From a phage, in the sequence record PZ379183.1: DNA of 46,713 nt; one strand, given 5' to 3'. Positions within the stretch are counted from its first letter, which is position 1; every line of letters starts with the position of its first letter. Position numbers and translations under genes: made by a program. Shown piece after piece: positions 2,337 to 41,833 of the stretch. Under the pieces are notes generated by a model that saw nothing but the letters and a program-made list of their open reading frames with translations, did no database searches and was not told where the DNA came from.

Positions 2337-2759
2337 ATGAAATTAAGCAAATCTCAAAGGGAAGAGTTGAAGGGCAAGTTCGGTGGTCGCTGCGCTTATT
2401 GTGGGTGTGAACTACCTGAGAAAGGCTGGCATGCTGACCATGTTGAACCGGTGCTACGTAAATCTGAGGTATGCATGAAGTCAGCGGAGAAAGGAACTTT
2501 CAAGCTGAAGGCGACAGGTGAGTTTAATCGACCACAAGCTGATCGAATGGAAAACCTTTACCCTGCATGTGCTCCATGCAACCTCATGAAAACTTGCTAT
2601 TCCCTTGAAATGTTCAGGGAACAGGTGTCTCTTCAAGTCGCTCGCGGGCGTAAGAGCAGCATGAATTTTCGCACGGCAGAGCGGTTCGGCCTCATCTCCA
2701 TAGTTGAGGATCCAGTTGTTTTCTGGTTTGAGAAGTTTGAGCAAATTAACAAAATCTGA
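2337..2759 (+). CDS. HNH-family endonuclease
   Basis: Cys pairs CAYCGC and CAPCN flanking H-x-D-H-V-E-P and conserved Asn, typical HNH zinc-finger nuclease signature. Confidence 0.6.
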   Translation: MKLSKSQREELKGKFGGRCAYCGCELPEKGWHADHVEPVLRKSEVCMKSAEKGTFKLKATGEFNRPQADRMENLYPACAPCNLMKTCYSLEMFREQVSLQVARGRKSSMNFRTAERFGLISIVEDPVVFWFEKFEQINKI

Positions 2760-6965: not shown

Positions 6966-7021
6966 AGACGTGCCGCCAAGGATGGCTTATAGTTACTTCA
7001 CGCAAACGAGAGGAGTAAAAA

Positions 7022-7375
7022 ATGAAAGCAGTATTTAAAGGGTATAAAAAATATGGTTATTTTGAATTTACCGTTGGTAAGATTTATGACTTATCAAGAA
7101 CGTCTGAAAGTAATAATGAATACGTCAAAGTTAAGGATGATAAAGGCTATGTGGGCGTAATTAATCTTAGTGTTTATGATTTCGAAGTTATAGAGCCTAC
7201 CGATTTTGTCGTTAAAGGTGATAATTTTAAAGTTGAAAAGGCTGGGATTAAATACTTCATCAACAAAGACATAGTAACTAAAGAGGCATTTTATGAAGTC
7301 AGAAGGGAGGTTCGCCAGTTAACACTTAATGGAGTGAAAACATCATCAATCAAGTTCGAAGTAAAATTCGAGTAA
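7022..7375 (+). CDS. hypothetical Lys-rich protein (117 aa), moron-like insertion
   Basis: AT-rich ORF with its own upstream motif and downstream terminator, inserted between terminase and portal. Confidence 0.5.
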   Translation: MKAVFKGYKKYGYFEFTVGKIYDLSRTSESNNEYVKVKDDKGYVGVINLSVYDFEVIEPTDFVVKGDNFKVEKAGIKYFINKDIVTKEAFYEVRREVRQLTLNGVKTSSIKFEVKFE

Positions 7376-7397
7376 CCATAAAAGCTATGCTAAACTA

Positions 7398-7418
7398 AGC
7401 CCCTAAATGGGGCTTTTT
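7398..7418 (+). terminator. rho-independent terminator
   Basis: AGCCCC-TAAAT-GGGGCT hairpin followed by T5. Confidence 0.7.
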
Positions 7419-7433
7419 ATTGGAGCAAATAAA

Positions 7434-8711
7434 ATGGTAAAAGCAGATTCATACGCCACGCAATTTCTTGGTGGCTCCAGTGATGGTAGCGAGATTTACG
7501 GGCACTTTGGCAACACGTATCTTACACCTCCTTTCGCTGATTCACTGTACGCATCAAACTCAATTGTACGCCGCATCGTCGACACCATACCGGAGACAGC
7601 AATCGCCGCAGGTTTCCATATCGATGGTATTGATGACGAAGGTGAATTCTGGTCCAGGTGGGATTACCTGAAGGTTAACGAGTCAATCTCTGACGCATGG
7701 TCATGGGCGAGGTTATTTGGCGGCTCTGCAATTGTGGCTATCGCTAAGGACAATCGTGCGCTAACTAGCCCGGTACGTGAAGGCGCGGAACTTGAATCAC
7801 TTCGCGTTTATGAGCGTAGCCAGGTAAGAGTTCAGACTAAGGAGGAAAACCCTCGCAATGTGCGATTCGGTAAGCCATTAACGTACCGCATCACGCCAGA
7901 AGGTGGCGCCATGTTTTATGATGTGCACTACTCGCGAGTTCACATTATGGATGGCGAGAAGATTCCTAGTTCATTGCGTCGCGGTAATGACGGGTGGGGT
8001 GCTAGCGTTCTGGTTCCTGACCTGCTTGAATCAATCAAGGATTATCAGACGTGTGAGAAACTGGCAACTCAGTTATTGCGCCGCAAGCAGCAGGCGGTGT
8101 GGAAGGCTAAAGGCCTTGCTGAACTGTGTGACGACGCGGAAGGTTTTGGTGCGGCCAGGTTGAGGCTTGCCCAGGTTGATGATAACTCTGGCGTTGGTCG
8201 CGCGATTGGTATCGACGCTGAAGCTGAAGAGTACAGCGTTCTTAACTCGGATATTGGTGGGATTGATGGATTCCTCGATAAGAAGTTCGACAGAATTGTT
8301 GCTCTGAGCGGTATCCATGAAATCATTCTCAAAGGTCGTAACGTTGGCGGGTTATCATCTAGCCAAAACACAGCGCTAGAGACATTCCATAAGTTGATTG
8401 ACCGCAAGCGTAACGAAGAGCTACTTCCAGTTCTTGGGTTCTTAATCCCGTTCGTCACAACCGAGCAAGAATGGTCAGTTGAGTTTAACCCTCTAGCTCA
8501 GGAATCGAAGAAAGACCGCGCTGAAGTACTGAAGAATAACGTTGATTCAATTACTGCTCTTATCACTAACGGCGTGATGGATGCAGACGAAGCACGAGAT
8601 ACCTTGCGCGCATTAGCCCCTGAGGTTAAGATTGGTGAAGGTTCAATTGAGACAGAGGTAACAATCAATGAAACCAGTGAAGACCCGCTGGAAGTACCCG
8701 CAGACAATTGA
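7434..8711 (+). CDS. portal protein
   Basis: ORF track 7407..8711, start moved to ATG after GGAG RBS because 7407 lies in the terminator hairpin; size and position after terminase. Confidence 0.75.
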   Translation: MVKADSYATQFLGGSSDGSEIYGHFGNTYLTPPFADSLYASNSIVRRIVDTIPETAIAAGFHIDGIDDEGEFWSRWDYLKVNESISDAWSWARLFGGSAIVAIAKDNRALTSPVREGAELESLRVYERSQVRVQTKEENPRNVRFGKPLTYRITPEGGAMFYDVHYSRVHIMDGEKIPSSLRRGNDGWGASVLVPDLLESIKDYQTCEKLATQLLRRKQQAVWKAKGLAELCDDAEGFGAARLRLAQVDDNSGVGRAIGIDAEAEEYSVLNSDIGGIDGFLDKKFDRIVALSGIHEIILKGRNVGGLSSSQNTALETFHKLIDRKRNEELLPVLGFLIPFVTTEQEWSVEFNPLAQESKKDRAEVLKNNVDSITALITNGVMDADEARDTLRALAPEVKIGEGSIETEVTINETSEDPLEVPADN

Positions 8712-27439: not shown

Positions 27440-27720
27440 ATGTATGCAATCTCATCCGCGAAAAATGATATACGCAATGTTACGCCAATTTACGCATTGG
27501 TTACATTAAAATATATATATATATCAACCTTTTACTCTTATTATTATTATTATATATATTACTATGTATATCATGTAACTGCTCTTATGGAGTGTTTCGG
27601 TTATAATTTTAATATCATGTGGATTTATACAGTATTGCGCGGTAGCTATACCAATGCACCCTCAGCAATAAATGATATACATGATATACGCACTATTTAC
27701 ATTGAGCTATAGCTTGGCTC
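27440..27720. repeat. AT-rich iteron and microsatellite region
   Basis: TACGC repeated three times at 10-bp spacing (27474-27500), GATATACGCA copies at 27466 and 27681, (AT)n and (TTA)5 tracts; 85-bp segment 27491-27575 duplicated at 46416-46500. Confidence 0.7.
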
Positions 27721-27883
27721 AGGTACCAAAAAACGTAACTAGTTCCAATGTACACACGGAATTACAAGAATTCACGCGTAAACTTAAATCAACGATTGGC
27801 GAAACCAATTGGACTGGGTGCGGCGCTGAATATATAGTTAAACCATCGAAAGCAAGCAAGCAAGCAAACAGAGAGATACAGAA

Positions 27884-28078
27884 ATGACCTACTACATTAT
27901 CAAAGAGAAAAACAACCCACTGTTCGGAGACTGCTACTTTGGTGGCCCAGCTGGATACACTACCAACAAATCTGAAGCCGACCAATTCGAGACAAAGGAA
28001 GAGGCCAAGGAGTTGCTGACCGGGTACTTCACTGAGGAAGATTTGAAAACAGTTAAGATTGTTAAAATTAAGGATTGA
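27884..28078 (+). CDS. hypothetical protein (64 aa)
   Basis: GAGAGATACAGAAATG start; first gene of the recombination operon. Confidence 0.45.
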   Translation: MTYYIIKEKNNPLFGDCYFGGPAGYTTNKSEADQFETKEEAKELLTGYFTEEDLKTVKIVKIKD

Positions 28079-32900: not shown

Positions 32901-33824
32901 TTAGTTTAGCAAGTCGTTTGCTTTGTACACTTTCTTTCGTATGCCTGTTTTAAATGACTCACCGTCATTAGGAACTACAACATCAACACCCCTATCGTCA
33001 GCAACAGCGAGTATATCGCTATCAGAATCACGGCAAGCAATTCTGAACTTCCTTGACTTGTCGCGGTGGATAACCATCTCCATATTGTAACAGGAGAAAG
33101 CAACAAACACTTCGCGCCCACCAGTAGCAAGGTGAACACGTATGCCATCAATATAATTGTCAACAACATAAGTATAACTATCATCCAGCTTAGAACCAAT
33201 AACGGAAACAGAATCACGAGTGTAATCACCAGCAAGGAACTTAACATTTGAATCCTCATCAATAAACATTACGTTACAGAACTCATCACTAAGCCCATCT
33301 TCATAAACCATCGAACAAGGGATTGCGTGAATCATTGAACAATTTTTAGCTATACCAACATCAAAACCAAACTCGTCATAAATACCCTCGTATGTCGTGA
33401 GTGGACTAGATTCAACTCGCTGAGTCCTCTCCATGACCTCAAGAACTTTCTTGTGGTCTACTTGAGCGCAAATTTTATAACGCTGCGTTCTTGATGCTTG
33501 CTTGTTTGCTTTAACTATAACCTCAATTGGTATTAAGTTCAGCCAGTCACCAAGCAAATTTACTGAATCAGCGAAGGACAATCCAGTGCACTTCATGACC
33601 CATCCTATACCGGAGTCACTTCCGCATTTCGAACAAACTGCCGCGCCATTTCCTTTTTCACTGCCTATTTCGTCGGTAAATCTGAATCTGTCAGTGCCAA
33701 AGCAGTATGGGCATGGTCCGTGCTTCTTACTTAGGTGTCTATCATTCCAACCAAGTTCCTTTGCATAAAATGATTTCCACAATCCGGCCATCTTAGGTAT
33801 AACTTCATTCTTATCGTAATTCAT
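32901..33824 (-). CDS. DNA primase (zinc-finger primase, putative)
   Basis: N-terminal zinc ribbon C-P-Y-C...C-S-K-C followed by acidic catalytic-like region; upstream of helicase in the replication block. Confidence 0.65.
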   Translation of the reverse strand: MNYDKNEVIPKMAGLWKSFYAKELGWNDRHLSKKHGPCPYCFGTDRFRFTDEIGSEKGNGAAVCSKCGSDSGIGWVMKCTGLSFADSVNLLGDWLNLIPIEVIVKANKQASRTQRYKICAQVDHKKVLEVMERTQRVESSPLTTYEGIYDEFGFDVGIAKNCSMIHAIPCSMVYEDGLSDEFCNVMFIDEDSNVKFLAGDYTRDSVSVIGSKLDDSYTYVVDNYIDGIRVHLATGGREVFVAFSCYNMEMVIHRDKSRKFRIACRDSDSDILAVADDRGVDVVVPNDGESFKTGIRKKVYKANDLLN

Positions 33825-34300
33825 TTGCTTAACCCGTGATTTTCGTGAAAGTTGTATTTTCCCTCTGCTTCAATTCTTACTTTATACGCCCGCTCTGGAG
33901 TATCGAAGTTCCCAAGGTGTAGCTGCTTGCCGTCAACCTTGATGTGAGCCTTAAATTTTCCGTGATTTAGCTTTGCCACTCCACAATAACCAGTTGTTGA
34001 TAAAACGCTAAGCTTGCAATTTCTTGAGTTACCTTGATTTGTTGTTACTCTTAGGTTTTCTATTCTGTTATCTAATTTGTTATGGTTTATATGATCAATG
34101 TAGTCGCCATTTTGAAGTTCTCCATTAAACATCTCCCACACAACTCTATGTACATAAGTCCTAAAGCCATTAACAGACACTTTGTAATAGCCAGATGTAG
34201 ATAGTGAGTTGCACTCATCGCCAACCTTAACACGTCTTGCAGTGCTAATCTTCCAATGCAATTTGCCATCTACATAGTAAAAATAATCATGCCAGTTCAT
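33821..34300 (-). CDS. HNH homing endonuclease
   Basis: YVHRVVW...IDHINHNKLDNRIENLR signature; paralogue of 14169..14651. Confidence 0.75.
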   Translation of the reverse strand: MNWHDYFYYVDGKLHWKISTARRVKVGDECNSLSTSGYYKVSVNGFRTYVHRVVWEMFNGELQNGDYIDHINHNKLDNRIENLRVTTNQGNSRNCKLSVLSTTGYCGVAKLNHGKFKAHIKVDGKQLHLGNFDTPERAYKVRIEAEGKYNFHENHGLSK

Positions 34301-38536: not shown

Positions 38537-39670
38537 ATGGCAGCAGCAAAAATTACCACCGAGCAGTTGATCGAAGAACTGAAAAACGGCCTGACTAACA
38601 AGGCGATTGCAGAGAAGTACGGAATGAACATTCGAAACGTTGAGCTTCGTCGTAGCAAGTTGGCTAAGAGTGGGGTTGGGCATGGTAATGAAGGCATCAA
38701 GAAGCTAGTTCCTGATGGCTATCTTGTTAAAGGCACTTCAACAATGATTGATGCGGATGGTAATGAGAAGCTTCGCTGGGTTAAAACTTCCATCGACGAA
38801 CAGAAACAAGAAGAGATGCTTCAGCAGATTGTTCAGGCGCTTACAGATGAGCTCCCTCGAGAGACTCCGAAACCACTCAGTGAATCAAGCTATGAGGACA
38901 CCTTGAGCCTCTACCCCGTGTTTGATATGCATATTGGCGCAATGGCTCACCATGCAGAGTGTGGGGAGAACTACAGTACAGAAATTGCAGAGCGAGTGCT
39001 TAACCAATACTTTGATTATGCAGTTGCTAAGGCCCCGAATTCATCAAAAGCCGTATTACTGATTGGTGGAGACTTCCTTCACTCGGATGGAATGGAAGCT
39101 GTAACTCCAACCAGCAAGCACGTACTTGATCAAGATAGCCGTTATCATAAACTTGTCTACGTAGCTGTTCGTGCAACTCGCCGCGCCGTCAGTAAGATGC
39201 TTGACAAGCATAAAGAGGTTGAGGTTCAGATTATACCAGGCAACCACGACCTTTCTGGGATGATTTGGCTTCGAGCTGCAATGGCTGCCTTCTACATGGA
39301 TGAGCCTCGTGTAAATGTTGATGCCTCACCAGCCGCTCTTCACGTGACGGAGTTTGGTAAAACATTGTTGGGTTACTGCCATGGTCATGAATTGCGAAAG
39401 CCTGACACTCGTCTTTCAACTCTTGCGCGCGACCATCGCAAAGCATTTGGTAATGCTGAATACGTTTATACACATAGTGGCCATTATCATCATCAGACGG
39501 TTACTGAGGGTAATCTTGGAATTGATGAGTCACACGGTCAGTTGGGTGCTAAAGATGCGTACAGCGCAAACGGAGGGTATCGCTCTTATCGTCAGGCCTC
39601 AGTAATTATCTATAGCTCAGAGTACGGTGAAGTTGGTCGATTCACTTGCCGACCTGAAATGTTTAAGTAA
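38537..39670 (+). CDS. calcineurin-like metallophosphoesterase with N-terminal HTH-like domain
   Basis: Ordered motifs D-M-H, GGDFLHSD, GNHD, C-H-G-H, T-H-S-G-H-Y-H-H matching the metallophosphatase signature; N-terminal ~110 aa contain a sigma-region-4-like HTH. Confidence 0.65.
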   Translation: MAAAKITTEQLIEELKNGLTNKAIAEKYGMNIRNVELRRSKLAKSGVGHGNEGIKKLVPDGYLVKGTSTMIDADGNEKLRWVKTSIDEQKQEEMLQQIVQALTDELPRETPKPLSESSYEDTLSLYPVFDMHIGAMAHHAECGENYSTEIAERVLNQYFDYAVAKAPNSSKAVLLIGGDFLHSDGMEAVTPTSKHVLDQDSRYHKLVYVAVRATRRAVSKMLDKHKEVEVQIIPGNHDLSGMIWLRAAMAAFYMDEPRVNVDASPAALHVTEFGKTLLGYCHGHELRKPDTRLSTLARDHRKAFGNAEYVYTHSGHYHHQTVTEGNLGIDESHGQLGAKDAYSANGGYRSYRQASVIIYSSEYGEVGRFTCRPEMFK

Positions 39671-39686
39671 TAGCATTTTTTGTTAA
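39671..39686 (+). promoter_or_regulatory. TAGCAC-N5-GCTAA motif copy (variant TAGCATTTTTTGTTAA) plus hairpin
   Basis: Directly after the phosphoesterase stop; followed by GCCTCAAAGGATTGAGGC hairpin. Confidence 0.4.
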
Positions 39687-39743
39687 TAAAGCCTCAAAGG
39701 ATTGAGGCAAAATGAATAAACGATAACGAGATGAGGAGTTGTA

Positions 39744-40217
39744 ATGATTTACGTGTTTGATATTGATGGAACTATTGCTAACAATGAACATAGAAGCCAC
39801 CTCTTACCATCTAGTGACCTTCACTTGACTTCAAGTTGGAGTGATTACAATAGAGCCTGTTCTGGAGATTCACCGATAATTCCAATGATAAACATGATGA
39901 ATGCGTTAGCTGAGTTATCGCCAGTTTACATCATGACTTCAAGAAGTGACGAAGTCGAATGTATGACGCTTGAATGGCTTCAGTATAATAATATTAATTA
40001 TGATGGAATATATATGAGGAGTAGATTGGATAACAGAAATGACTATATCATTAAAGAGATGTGGCTAAATGATTTGTGTAATGGTGACAAAGCAAGTGTG
40101 ATAATCTTTGAGGATAATCCTAATGTTATCAGTCACCTAAGGAATTGCGGATATACTGTAATGTCAGTTTGTGAATATAAAGAATTACCAAAAGACTGCG
40201 AATCTCACGGAGAATAA
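39744..40217 (+). CDS. HAD-family phosphatase (polynucleotide 3'-phosphatase / nucleotidase-like)
   Basis: N-terminal FDIDGTI motif (DxDGT, nucleophile Asp of HAD phosphatases); AT-rich coding sequence. Confidence 0.55.
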   Translation: MIYVFDIDGTIANNEHRSHLLPSSDLHLTSSWSDYNRACSGDSPIIPMINMMNALAELSPVYIMTSRSDEVECMTLEWLQYNNINYDGIYMRSRLDNRNDYIIKEMWLNDLCNGDKASVIIFEDNPNVISHLRNCGYTVMSVCEYKELPKDCESHGE

Positions 40218-40218
40218 A

Positions 40219-40773
40219 ATGAAAAAGTTAATCATCCTTAATGCACCCCCTGGTGCTGGAAAAGATACAGTTGCAGATATCATTGTTAATCTTGGAATTT
40301 GCAAGGATAAGGTTTCATTCAAGTCACCAATGTTTAATGTTGCAAAAGGAATACTATCAAGCGATGAGTTTGATGAATTTATTAAGAATTACGATGACCG
40401 AGAGTACAAAGAATCACCACATGAATTTCTTGGTGGAATGACGGTTCGTGAATTTATGATTTGGATTAGTGAGTCAGTTATGAAGCCAGTCTTTGGTGAT
40501 GATGTTTTCGGTAAAAGGCTAGCGCAATCACTTGGTGATGGTTGCTATATCTGTGCTGATGGTGGCTTCGCTAGCGAGATTAATACTCTCATTGATTCAG
40601 GGGTTGAAGTTACTTTGATTAGACTTTTTAGGCCTGGCTATACTTTTGATGGAGATAGCCGCTCCTACATTCGCGGTGTCTGCGCAAGAGAAATTGACGT
40701 TCATGTTGTAGATGGTGATATTGATGGAACCTCTGCTTTGGTAATGCACGTAATAAATAGCACGAATTGCTAA
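40219..40773 (+). CDS. P-loop kinase (polynucleotide kinase or dNMP kinase-like)
   Basis: Walker A LNAPPGAGKDT at N-terminus; ATG 2 nt after the HAD stop with GGAG RBS; ends in -INSTNC encoded by motif. Confidence 0.55.
   Translation: MKKLIILNAPPGAGKDTVADIIVNLGICKDKVSFKSPMFNVAKGILSSDEFDEFIKNYDDREYKESPHEFLGGMTVREFMIWISESVMKPVFGDDVFGKRLAQSLGDGCYICADGGFASEINTLIDSGVEVTLIRLFRPGYTFDGDSRSYIRGVCAREIDVHVVDGDIDGTSALVMHVINSTNC
40758..40773 (+). promoter_or_regulatory. TAGCAC-N5-GCTAA motif copy plus ~60-bp conserved leader
   Basis: Exact consensus; following 60 nt nearly identical to 1864-1925, including CCGGAGTAATCCGG hairpin and CATAAT. Confidence 0.5.
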
Positions 40774-40831
40774 ACAATCGCCGGAGTAATCCGGCATAAT
40801 TACTACATCGAAAACAACAGAGGATTCAAAA

Positions 40832-41005
40832 ATGACTAAATTATACTGCGTTAAAAACAACTCAAAGACACTGCCGTTCACCGAAAACCAGCCGTACAGC
40901 GCAGAGTCTCTAGGTGACGGTTACTACAAAGTTTACGGTGACGATATGACTCACATCCTTGCGCCGATTGATGGCTCTTTGGTGGAATTTATTATCGCAG
41001 ATTAA
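40832..41005 (+). CDS. hypothetical small protein (57 aa)
   Basis: ATG after AGAGGATTCAAAA leader; frame read manually; followed by terminator. Confidence 0.35.
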   Translation: MTKLYCVKNNSKTLPFTENQPYSAESLGDGYYKVYGDDMTHILAPIDGSLVEFIIAD

Positions 41006-41031
41006 CACATCAAAAACATAGATTTGCATGC

Positions 41032-41058
41032 GGGGGGCCTTTTGGCTCCCCTTTTTTT
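41032..41058 (+). terminator. rho-independent terminator
   Basis: GGGGGCC-TTTT-GGCTCCC hairpin followed by T7. Confidence 0.75.
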
Positions 41059-41110
41059 GCTTATAATTTGCCACCGCCTAATGTATGATATTTGCACTAT
41101 GTATTGACAA
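41059..41110 (+). promoter_or_regulatory. candidate promoter region of lysis cassette
   Basis: TATAAT at 41062-41067 and TTGACA at 41104-41109 are both present, but no pair with canonical spacing was found. Confidence 0.25.
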
Positions 41111-41132
41111 ATTAGGATTTAAAGGTGATCAC

Positions 41133-41348
41133 ATGAGGGAAGTAATTAACGCCGCCACGGCATCAACCGGCGGAGCCGCTGTAACTGGTGCCGCAACTGG
41201 TCAAATGACTATAGCAATAATCAGCCTTGTGGCTCTTGTTGTTTTCGGGCTGTGGGGAGCATATTGGAAGTTTAAGGACAGTCAGGCAATCAGGAAGGCT
41301 CTAGAGTCGGGTGATTTAAAGACAGCTATCAATATTAGGAGTAAGTAA
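41133..41348 (+). CDS. holin (pinholin-like, putative)
   Basis: Internal ATG of ORF 41085..41348 with AAAGGTGA RBS; Gly/Ala-rich weakly hydrophobic N-terminal segment plus one strong TM segment and charged C-terminus; immediately upstream of endolysin. Confidence 0.55.
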   Translation: MREVINAATASTGGAAVTGAATGQMTIAIISLVALVVFGLWGAYWKFKDSQAIRKALESGDLKTAINIRSK

Positions 41349-41833
41349 TGAAGCAGAAGCTGGTAATTAGTGCAGCGACGGCTGTGGCAATATACATCGC
41401 AGCGCCGATTATTGAGCTAGTAGAAGGTGTGGAATACAAGCCTTACATGGACATTGCAGGCATTCCTACGGTTTGTTCAGGTATCACTGGTCCTGATGTG
41501 GTGTGGGGTAAAAAGTACAGTGCAAGGGAGTGCAGGAACTTACTGGAGAAACACATCCAGATTCATGGAAAGTATGTGCAGGATGCAGTAACTTACCCAA
41601 TCTCTCCACAGACAAGGGCGGCGTTAATCAGCTTTAGCTACAACGTTGGTGGCGCTGCAATGAGGAAGTCAACGGCAGTAAGGCTGATTAATCAGGGCAA
41701 GATTGAAGAGGGTTGTAATGCTCTCGCCTCCTGGAATAAAGCTCGAGTAAATGGCAAGCTAAAAGTTGTTAAAGGCCTCGTCAACAGGCGCAACGAGGAG
41801 ATTAAATTATGCTTAAGTGGGGTGGGTAAATGA
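41348..41833 (+). CDS. endolysin, GH24 lysozyme with SAR-type N-terminal signal-anchor
   Basis: N-terminal Ala/Ile-rich segment (LVISAATAVAIYIAAPI) followed by the catalytic Glu context IIELVEGVEYKPYMD...G-I-P-T, resembling SAR lysozymes such as P1 Lyz. Confidence 0.75.
   Translation: MKQKLVISAATAVAIYIAAPIIELVEGVEYKPYMDIAGIPTVCSGITGPDVVWGKKYSARECRNLLEKHIQIHGKYVQDAVTYPISPQTRAALISFSYNVGGAAMRKSTAVRLINQGKIEEGCNALASWNKARVNGKLKVVKGLVNRRNEEIKLCLSGVGK

Follow-up and report, generated by a model that had tools for sequence, protein, structure and literature searches.

A stand-alone Pnk-type phosphatase and a predicted T4 gp1-type deoxynucleoside monophosphate kinase encoded by adjacent genes of a T1-like coliphage

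Results

Layout of the locus and its transcription unit

The DNA analysed here, a stretch of 46,713 nucleotides referred to as the window, is essentially the 46.7-kb genome of one Drexlerviridae phage. All matched relatives of the window are Drexlerviridae (T1-like siphophages) of the subfamily Braunvirinae. Escherichia phages ES and AN_ECEAS match the region 39000-41500 with 95.7% identity, other Rtp/ACG-M12-type phages with ~77-80%.

Two genes on the + strand abut in this region. The open reading frame (ORF) at 39744..40217 (ATG 39744, TAA 40215-40217; GAGGAG 8 nt upstream) encodes a stand-alone HAD phosphatase of 157 aa without a kinase domain, starting with MIYVFDIDGT. It is followed at 40219..40773 by the gene for a predicted T4 gp1-type deoxynucleoside monophosphate (dNMP) kinase of 184 aa (N-terminus MKKLIILNAPPGAGKDT; P-loop NAPPGAGKDT). 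A mechanical ORF list has the second ORF begin at GTG 40171. Since the position of ATG 40219 is the start in 120 of 120 kinase homologues (M-K/A-K-x-I-I-L-N-A-P-P-G-A-G-K-D-T), we place the gene at 40219..40773. The initial annotation, made from the letters of the DNA, had let the second gene start 2 nt after the stop of the first, and indeed a single base (40218) separates the phosphatase stop from the kinase ATG. Due to a GGAG at 40209-40212, inside the 3' end of the phosphatase gene and 6 nt upstream of the kinase ATG, the arrangement is consistent with translational coupling of phosphatase and kinase.

The pair has a GC content of 37.2% (HAD gene 35.0%, kinase gene 39.1%) as compared to a genome mean of 44.0%; among 1030-nt windows of the genome (sd 2.5%) only 0.5% lie below the pair, which bears out the AT-richness noted before. 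Other AT-rich stretches occur at 7001..7500 (34.8% GC) and 27501..28000 (36.0% GC). G+C-rich hairpins are found directly 5' of the phosphatase gene (39691..39708) and directly 3' of the kinase gene (40779..40796), both lacking a T-run on the + strand. They may serve RNA processing or stability, or mark the borders of a cassette.

Directly upstream of the pair and in the same operon lies a gene annotated as 'DNA repair exonuclease' (38537..39670, + strand), the 377-aa product of which matches phrog_704 (4.9e-150) and combines an N-terminal HTH-like region with a metallophosphoesterase domain. Pfam Metallophos matches this protein weakly and below the cut-off (E 0.0013), and a PDB sequence search gave no match. 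Downstream of the pair follows a gene for a 57-aa DUF7244 protein, a stand-alone SH3-clan protein (40832..41005, + strand; PF23896 4.7e-28, phrog_4788). It is the last gene before an intrinsic-terminator-like hairpin (41032..41051, + strand; 8-bp stem with 7 G-C pairs, T7 tail), which closes the transcription unit of the pair and is followed by the holin, endolysin and spanin genes. A stand-alone SH3 (DUF7244) has been described as part of the Drexlerviridae lysis module, and seven phages only were found to have it alongside PNK and dNMP kinase (PMC13164509). Since the terminator-like hairpin, a strong one, separates DUF7244 from the holin gene, DUF7244 is here grouped transcriptionally with exonuclease, phosphatase and kinase. 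A promoter scan found 11 sites as compared to 8.8 expected from shuffled sequence, and no promoter is claimed.

The pair as such is already known: near-identical sequences have been deposited, the genes are annotated in many relatives, and published work has already treated them as a pair. The PNK and dNMP kinase of Drexlerviridae (T1, TLS gp09/gp14, SU57_00064/65, AN_ECEAS) are the same genes as those studied here, and their position behind the 'DNA repair exonuclease' is the one described for the family (PMC13164509).

The first gene encodes a phosphatase without a kinase domain

The 157-aa protein matches Pfam PF25109 HAD_PNKP (polynucleotide kinase PNKP phosphatase domain) with 55.5 bits against a cut-off of 27.6 over residues 3-142, and phrog_415 with 1.3e-48 over residues 1-155. 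No other domain was detected, and NCBIfam gave no match. The ORF, first noticed for its FDIDGT motif, is thus a real gene. phrog_415 carries the label 'polynucleotide kinase'. Since T4 Pnk matches it through residues 154-298 only, the full-length T4 enzyme being phrog_505, phrog_415 is a phosphatase-only family. A PDB search with a profile of 18 homologues returned Capnocytophaga Pnkp1 first (1.3e-07) and T4 Pnk next, while the single sequence yielded just a weak Pnkp1 match. In hhalign the protein covered T4 Pnk residues 162-298 with probability 93. Its fold, too, is matched best by Pnkp1 and T4 Pnkp. The likeness to the 3'-phosphatase domain of T4 Pnk proposed in the initial annotation is well founded, and by its sequence the first gene product is a stand-alone phosphatase of the T4-Pnk phosphatase clade.

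The nucleophile motif D6-I-D8-G-T10 is invariant in the 18 homologues and aligns with D165-V-D167-G-T of T4. Further equivalents (T4 = phage) are R176 = R17, S211 = T65, R213 = R67, R246 = R92, D254 = D100, K258 = K104 and D277/D278 = E123/D124, the register of T65-S66-R67 being taken from the Pnkp1 alignment. Nearly all residues matching T4 catalytic positions are invariant in the family. An AF2 model (mean pLDDT 75) has a good Rossmann core and is poor at residues 10-41, likely the substrate-facing insert.

With T4 Pnkp (PseT; PDB 1LTQ, 5UJ0) and Capnocytophaga Pnkp1 (4XRP) the 157-aa protein has in common their C-terminal DxDxT phosphatase domain. Unlike T4 Pnkp it stands alone, without the N-terminal P-loop kinase domain, and no ligase partner was found for it. 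Moreover, it has a highly conserved insert of ~13 residues after Arg17 (LLPSSDLHLTSSW) and a conserved C-terminal tail, PKDCESHGE, both of which are not in T4 Pnkp. The roles of T4 Pnkp Asp165, Asp167, Ser211, Lys258 and Asp278 were established by Das and Shuman (PMC3592404). As T4 Pnkp also hydrolyses the mononucleotide 3'-dTMP (PMC3592404), membership in this family leaves room for a polynucleotide as well as for a mononucleotide substrate.

The second gene most likely encodes a T4 gp1-type dNMP kinase

The initial annotation had compared the second gene, on account of a Walker A motif PPGAGKDT near its start, with the kinase domain of Pnk or with dNMP kinases. The motif is present and the gene is real: phrog_139, 'deoxynucleoside monophosphate kinase', matches the protein with 6e-42 (profile positions 82-260). 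T4 gp1, the sequence of which was confirmed against PDB 1DEK, matches the same profile with 1.8e-65 over nearly the same positions (83-261). The protein has the NMP-kinase fold with gp1 as the closest fold. In a comparison with predicted viral structures, the named matches were mostly dNMP kinases and none was annotated as polynucleotide kinase. The P-loop reads G14-K15-D16-T17, with Asp after the Lys; among 44 homologues its first three residues do not vary, and T17 is conserved in at least 90%. gp1 has the same signature (S-G-K-D-T), as compared to G-K-S-T of T4 Pnk.

Alignment with hhalign covered 75 columns of gp1, comprising the P-loop and the NMP-binding region, as compared to a 27-residue P-loop alone for T4 Pnk; in a direct HMM comparison the aligned part was limited to the N-terminal 47 residues of gp1. 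An HMM of the Pnk kinase domain, small and built from T4 and three fused environmental Pnkps, gave no better than E 3.3 with the phage kinase. Pairwise global alignment gave z 4.4 with gp1 and z 4.8 with the T4 Pnk kinase domain, the P-loop accounting for both scores. Since these scores do not discriminate gp1 from T4 Pnk, the kinase was assigned by its PHROG profile and its fold. No Pfam or NCBIfam family matched the kinase; a PDB search with the single sequence returned nothing useful, and the alignment profile generic P-loop matches only.

Taken together, the second gene most likely encodes a dNMP kinase of the T4 gp1 type, as predicted from profile and fold. As compared to T4 gene 1 dNMP kinase (1DEK/1DEL; PHROG 139) it is only 18% identical and 57 residues shorter (184 versus 241 aa), and in direct sequence comparison the confident alignment with gp1 is limited to the N-terminal 47-75 residues. 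Of the two comparisons made initially, the one with dNMP kinases therefore stands, whereas that with the Pnk kinase goes no further than the P-loop. The idea that the pair represents a split polynucleotide kinase-phosphatase of reversed order thereby loses its support for the kinase half.

Distribution of the two genes in other phages

By tblastn, the kinase is found in 1,449 and the phosphatase in at least 1,359 phage records from many families. The pair recurs, phosphatase first and kinase second, in T1-like phages and some podophages, often behind the metallophosphoesterase 'exonuclease'; each gene is also found alone elsewhere. Among 80 kinase-anchored IMG/VR loci, 32 also contain the phosphatase, and in all 32 it lies upstream of the kinase, on the same strand and as a separate ORF, with gaps between the aligned parts of 26-2,173 nt. 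A phosphatase-kinase fusion protein was therefore rejected (0 of 32 two-gene loci with one ORF). Fused T4-like Pnkps of ~300 aa are confined to the weak end of the phosphatase match list, and the Pnk-kinase HMM detected no Pnk-type kinase within 6 kb of stand-alone phosphatase loci. Linkage depends on relatedness: the phosphatase lies within 6 kb in 30 of the 40 kinase loci closest to the query and in 2 of the 40 more distant ones, and none of 24 distant phosphatase-anchored loci has this kinase within 6 kb. The triad of exonuclease, phosphatase and kinase is contiguous in loci L038-L041, L043, L044 and L088 (T1-like and ~45-kb contigs).

In phage T1 the pair lies at a different genomic place, before the terminase genes, with a homing endonuclease between its two members, which may be the reason why the distance between them varies among other loci. 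Other genes between phosphatase and kinase have been described for TLS and T1 (PMC11447400), whereas here the two abut. The podophage Lidtsur carries exonuclease, endonuclease VII, a homologue of the 377-aa protein (43% identity) and, immediately behind it, the phosphatase, with no kinase. In Drulisvirus KPPK108.2 the phosphatase comes after a 5'-3' exonuclease and endonuclease VII. The T4-like Krischvirus W115 has a stand-alone phosphatase of 42% identity directly behind nrdA-nrdB, with the phosphatase start overlapping the nrdB stop. A few kilobases away it encodes a full-length polynucleotide kinase as well as an RNA ligase. Since W115 has a full Pnkp and RNA ligase too, the stand-alone phosphatase is not simply a Pnkp substitute, which argues that it does something the bifunctional Pnkp does not. 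Together, L007 (3501-3977) and L115 (6684-7562) cover the stand-alone phosphatase and the full-length Pnk of W115.

Exchange of the two genes among close relatives

Megablast matches to phages TR1, TR2, TR3, CY1 and Rao1 begin at 40213, the phosphatase/kinase boundary. In these phages, TR1 among them (L004, 2409-3561), a phosphatase allele of 182 aa and only 40% identity precedes a kinase that is 84% identical. The start of similarity at 40213 together with the divergent phosphatase suggests that recombination took place at the border of the two genes. In AN_ECEAS the phosphatase is 99.4% and the kinase 87% identical. In the close relative phiA2-1 two small ORFs (52 and 65 aa) replace the pair (L005, 3232-3589), so that the pair is dispensable for this type of phage. 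As judged from these sequences, phosphatase and kinase genes are accessory and exchanged independently of each other. With alleles swapped or both genes absent in near relatives, the two may lie side by side owing to common descent or to a mobile cassette, and not because their functions are coupled.

Search for further end-healing functions

A PHROG scan of ten large non-structural ORFs of the window identified HNH endonucleases, a DNA methyltransferase, a primase, two helicases, exonuclease VIII, a regulator and a membrane protein. The search for a ligase suggested by the initial annotation found none among these ten ORFs and none in the annotation of the nearest relative AN_ECEAS; W115, as mentioned, has an RNA ligase. 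With an approximate T4 Stp sequence as query, the best match to an Stp-like peptide had a non-significant E of 0.7. A second, Pnk-type kinase hidden elsewhere in the window was rejected, as the Pnk-kinase HMM finds nothing else. With neither a Pnk-type kinase nor a ligase found, tRNA repair would be short of two of its three activities, which are absent or undetected, and the proposal that the pair heals tRNA cut by host anticodon nucleases lacks candidates for them here. Free-standing HNH homing-endonuclease genes are located at 2337..2759 and 33821..34300 (- strand).

Discussion

From the sequence comparisons we consider it probable that phosphatase and kinase belong, as separate enzymes, to a module for DNA and nucleotide turnover and are not the halves of a Pnkp. 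Their substrates and physiological role we infer as follows. In the phosphatase, Asp6 would attack the phosphomonoester and Asp8 would serve as general acid/base, according to the DxDxT acyl-phosphate mechanism; the phosphate would be held by Thr65 and Lys104, and Mg2+ by Glu123/Asp124. By analogy with T4 Pnkp, the enzyme would remove 3'-phosphates, either at the ends of DNA or oligonucleotides or in 3'-(d)NMPs. The kinase, in analogy to T4 gp1, would convert 5'-dNMPs to dNDPs. Once the phosphatase has unblocked 3'-phosphate ends, the upstream metallophosphoesterase 'exonuclease' could release 5'-dNMPs, which the kinase would then phosphorylate. Hereby degraded DNA would be turned by nuclease, phosphatase and kinase into precursors for phage DNA synthesis. 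Because the phosphatase is expected to be 3'-specific and the kinase 5'-dNMP-specific, there would be no futile cycle and the enzymes could act in sequence.

A gp1-type kinase fits the suggestion, made in the initial annotation, that the pair remodels nucleotide pools. T1 and TLS degrade the host chromosome and reuse its nucleotides, and they have no DNA polymerase of their own (PMC11447400). The same hypothesis, that PNK and dNMP kinase contribute to the supply of nucleotides in Drexlerviridae, was put forward in the KanT1 paper (PMC13164509). We favour a role in salvage since T1 and TLS recycle host DNA, and since the phosphatase repeatedly adjoins nucleases, ribonucleotide reductase or a dNMP kinase. 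Counting against it, linkage of the pair is facultative, as seen in the 2 of 40 distant kinase loci and 0 of 24 distant phosphatase loci, and the AF2 model of the phosphatase is poor in the very part that likely faces the substrate. For the stand-alone phosphatase and for dNMP kinases of T1-like phages, the literature search found annotation-level statements only and no experimental work. To our knowledge, no nuclease leaving 3'-phosphates has been identified in T1-like phages.

Two bolder ideas go beyond salvage, and it is unlikely that either of them applies. According to one, nuclease, phosphatase and kinase would form a dedicated pipeline that moves between phage families and turns nuclease-cut DNA into dNDPs in three steps; fragments that host or defence nucleases leave blocked by a 3'-phosphate would be part of its input. 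According to the other, the large phosphatase-only clade would have a substrate unrelated to end healing, for example a 3'-phosphorylated nucleotide of host defence.

Much less probable than a turnover module, but the best of its competitors, is an interpretation of the two as unrelated accessory genes kept in synteny. The phosphatase, together with the upstream nuclease, would then clean 3'-phosphate DNA ends for host polymerase and ligase or for phage RecE/Erf recombination, while the kinase would independently boost dNDPs. RecE-like and Erf-like genes are present in the phage, phosphatase and kinase are distributed independently, and in Lidtsur exonuclease and phosphatase are adjacent without a kinase (exonucleases 43% identical). 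Moreover, TR1-like phages carry another phosphatase allele, exchanged precisely at the border of the gene. Against a lack of any relation speak the order kept in 32 of 32 two-gene loci and in at least two genomic contexts, and the probable translational coupling of the two genes in this window.

It is quite unlikely that the pair is a split Pnkp, in which the phosphatase would heal 3'-phosphate or 2',3'-cyclic phosphate ends and the kinase phosphorylate 5'-OH ends of cut tRNA or DNA and thereby counter PrrC- or RloC-type nucleases. Admittedly, the phosphatase does belong to the Pnk phosphatase clade, the two genes appear translationally coupled, and the genome note on the T1-like phage Stevie ties an Stp-like peptide and a 'polynucleotide kinase' to anticodon-nuclease evasion (PMC4319613). 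Even so, the kinase is of the gp1 type with an NMP-kinase fold, and what aligns with T4 Pnk is the P-loop alone (Pnk-kinase HMM E 3.3). No Pnk-type kinase is found within 6 kb of any stand-alone phosphatase locus, and W115 possesses a complete Pnkp and ligase besides its stand-alone phosphatase. Neither the ten scanned large non-structural ORFs nor the AN_ECEAS annotation contain a ligase, and the best match to an Stp-like peptide is at E 0.7. Removal of the 3'-phosphate would, moreover, deprive the host ligase RtcB of its substrate.

A counter-defence function, with the kinase offsetting dNTP-depleting defences and the phosphatase destroying a 3'-phosphorylated signal or toxin or masking products of DNA breakdown, would fit the AT-rich, accessory and mosaic nature of the cassette and the description of defences that sense host-DNA breakdown products (bioRxiv 10.64898/2026.01.26.701840), but is very unlikely, as both genes lie in DNA-metabolism contexts in other phages and no match to a known anti-defence family was seen in the libraries searched, a set distinct from PADLOC- and dbAPIS-type collections.

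The analysis bears above all on annotation, where a Pnk-type phosphatase without kinase domain is to be told apart from the adjacent gp1-type dNMP kinase. Many of the listed GenBank relatives label the phosphatase-only protein 'polynucleotide kinase' or '3'-phosphatase, 5'-polynucleotide kinase', names which overstate the 157-aa protein because it has no kinase domain. The label 'polynucleotide kinase' invites the wrong inference that these phages repair cleaved tRNA. As seen in W115, the stand-alone phosphatase is retained even where a full Pnkp is present.
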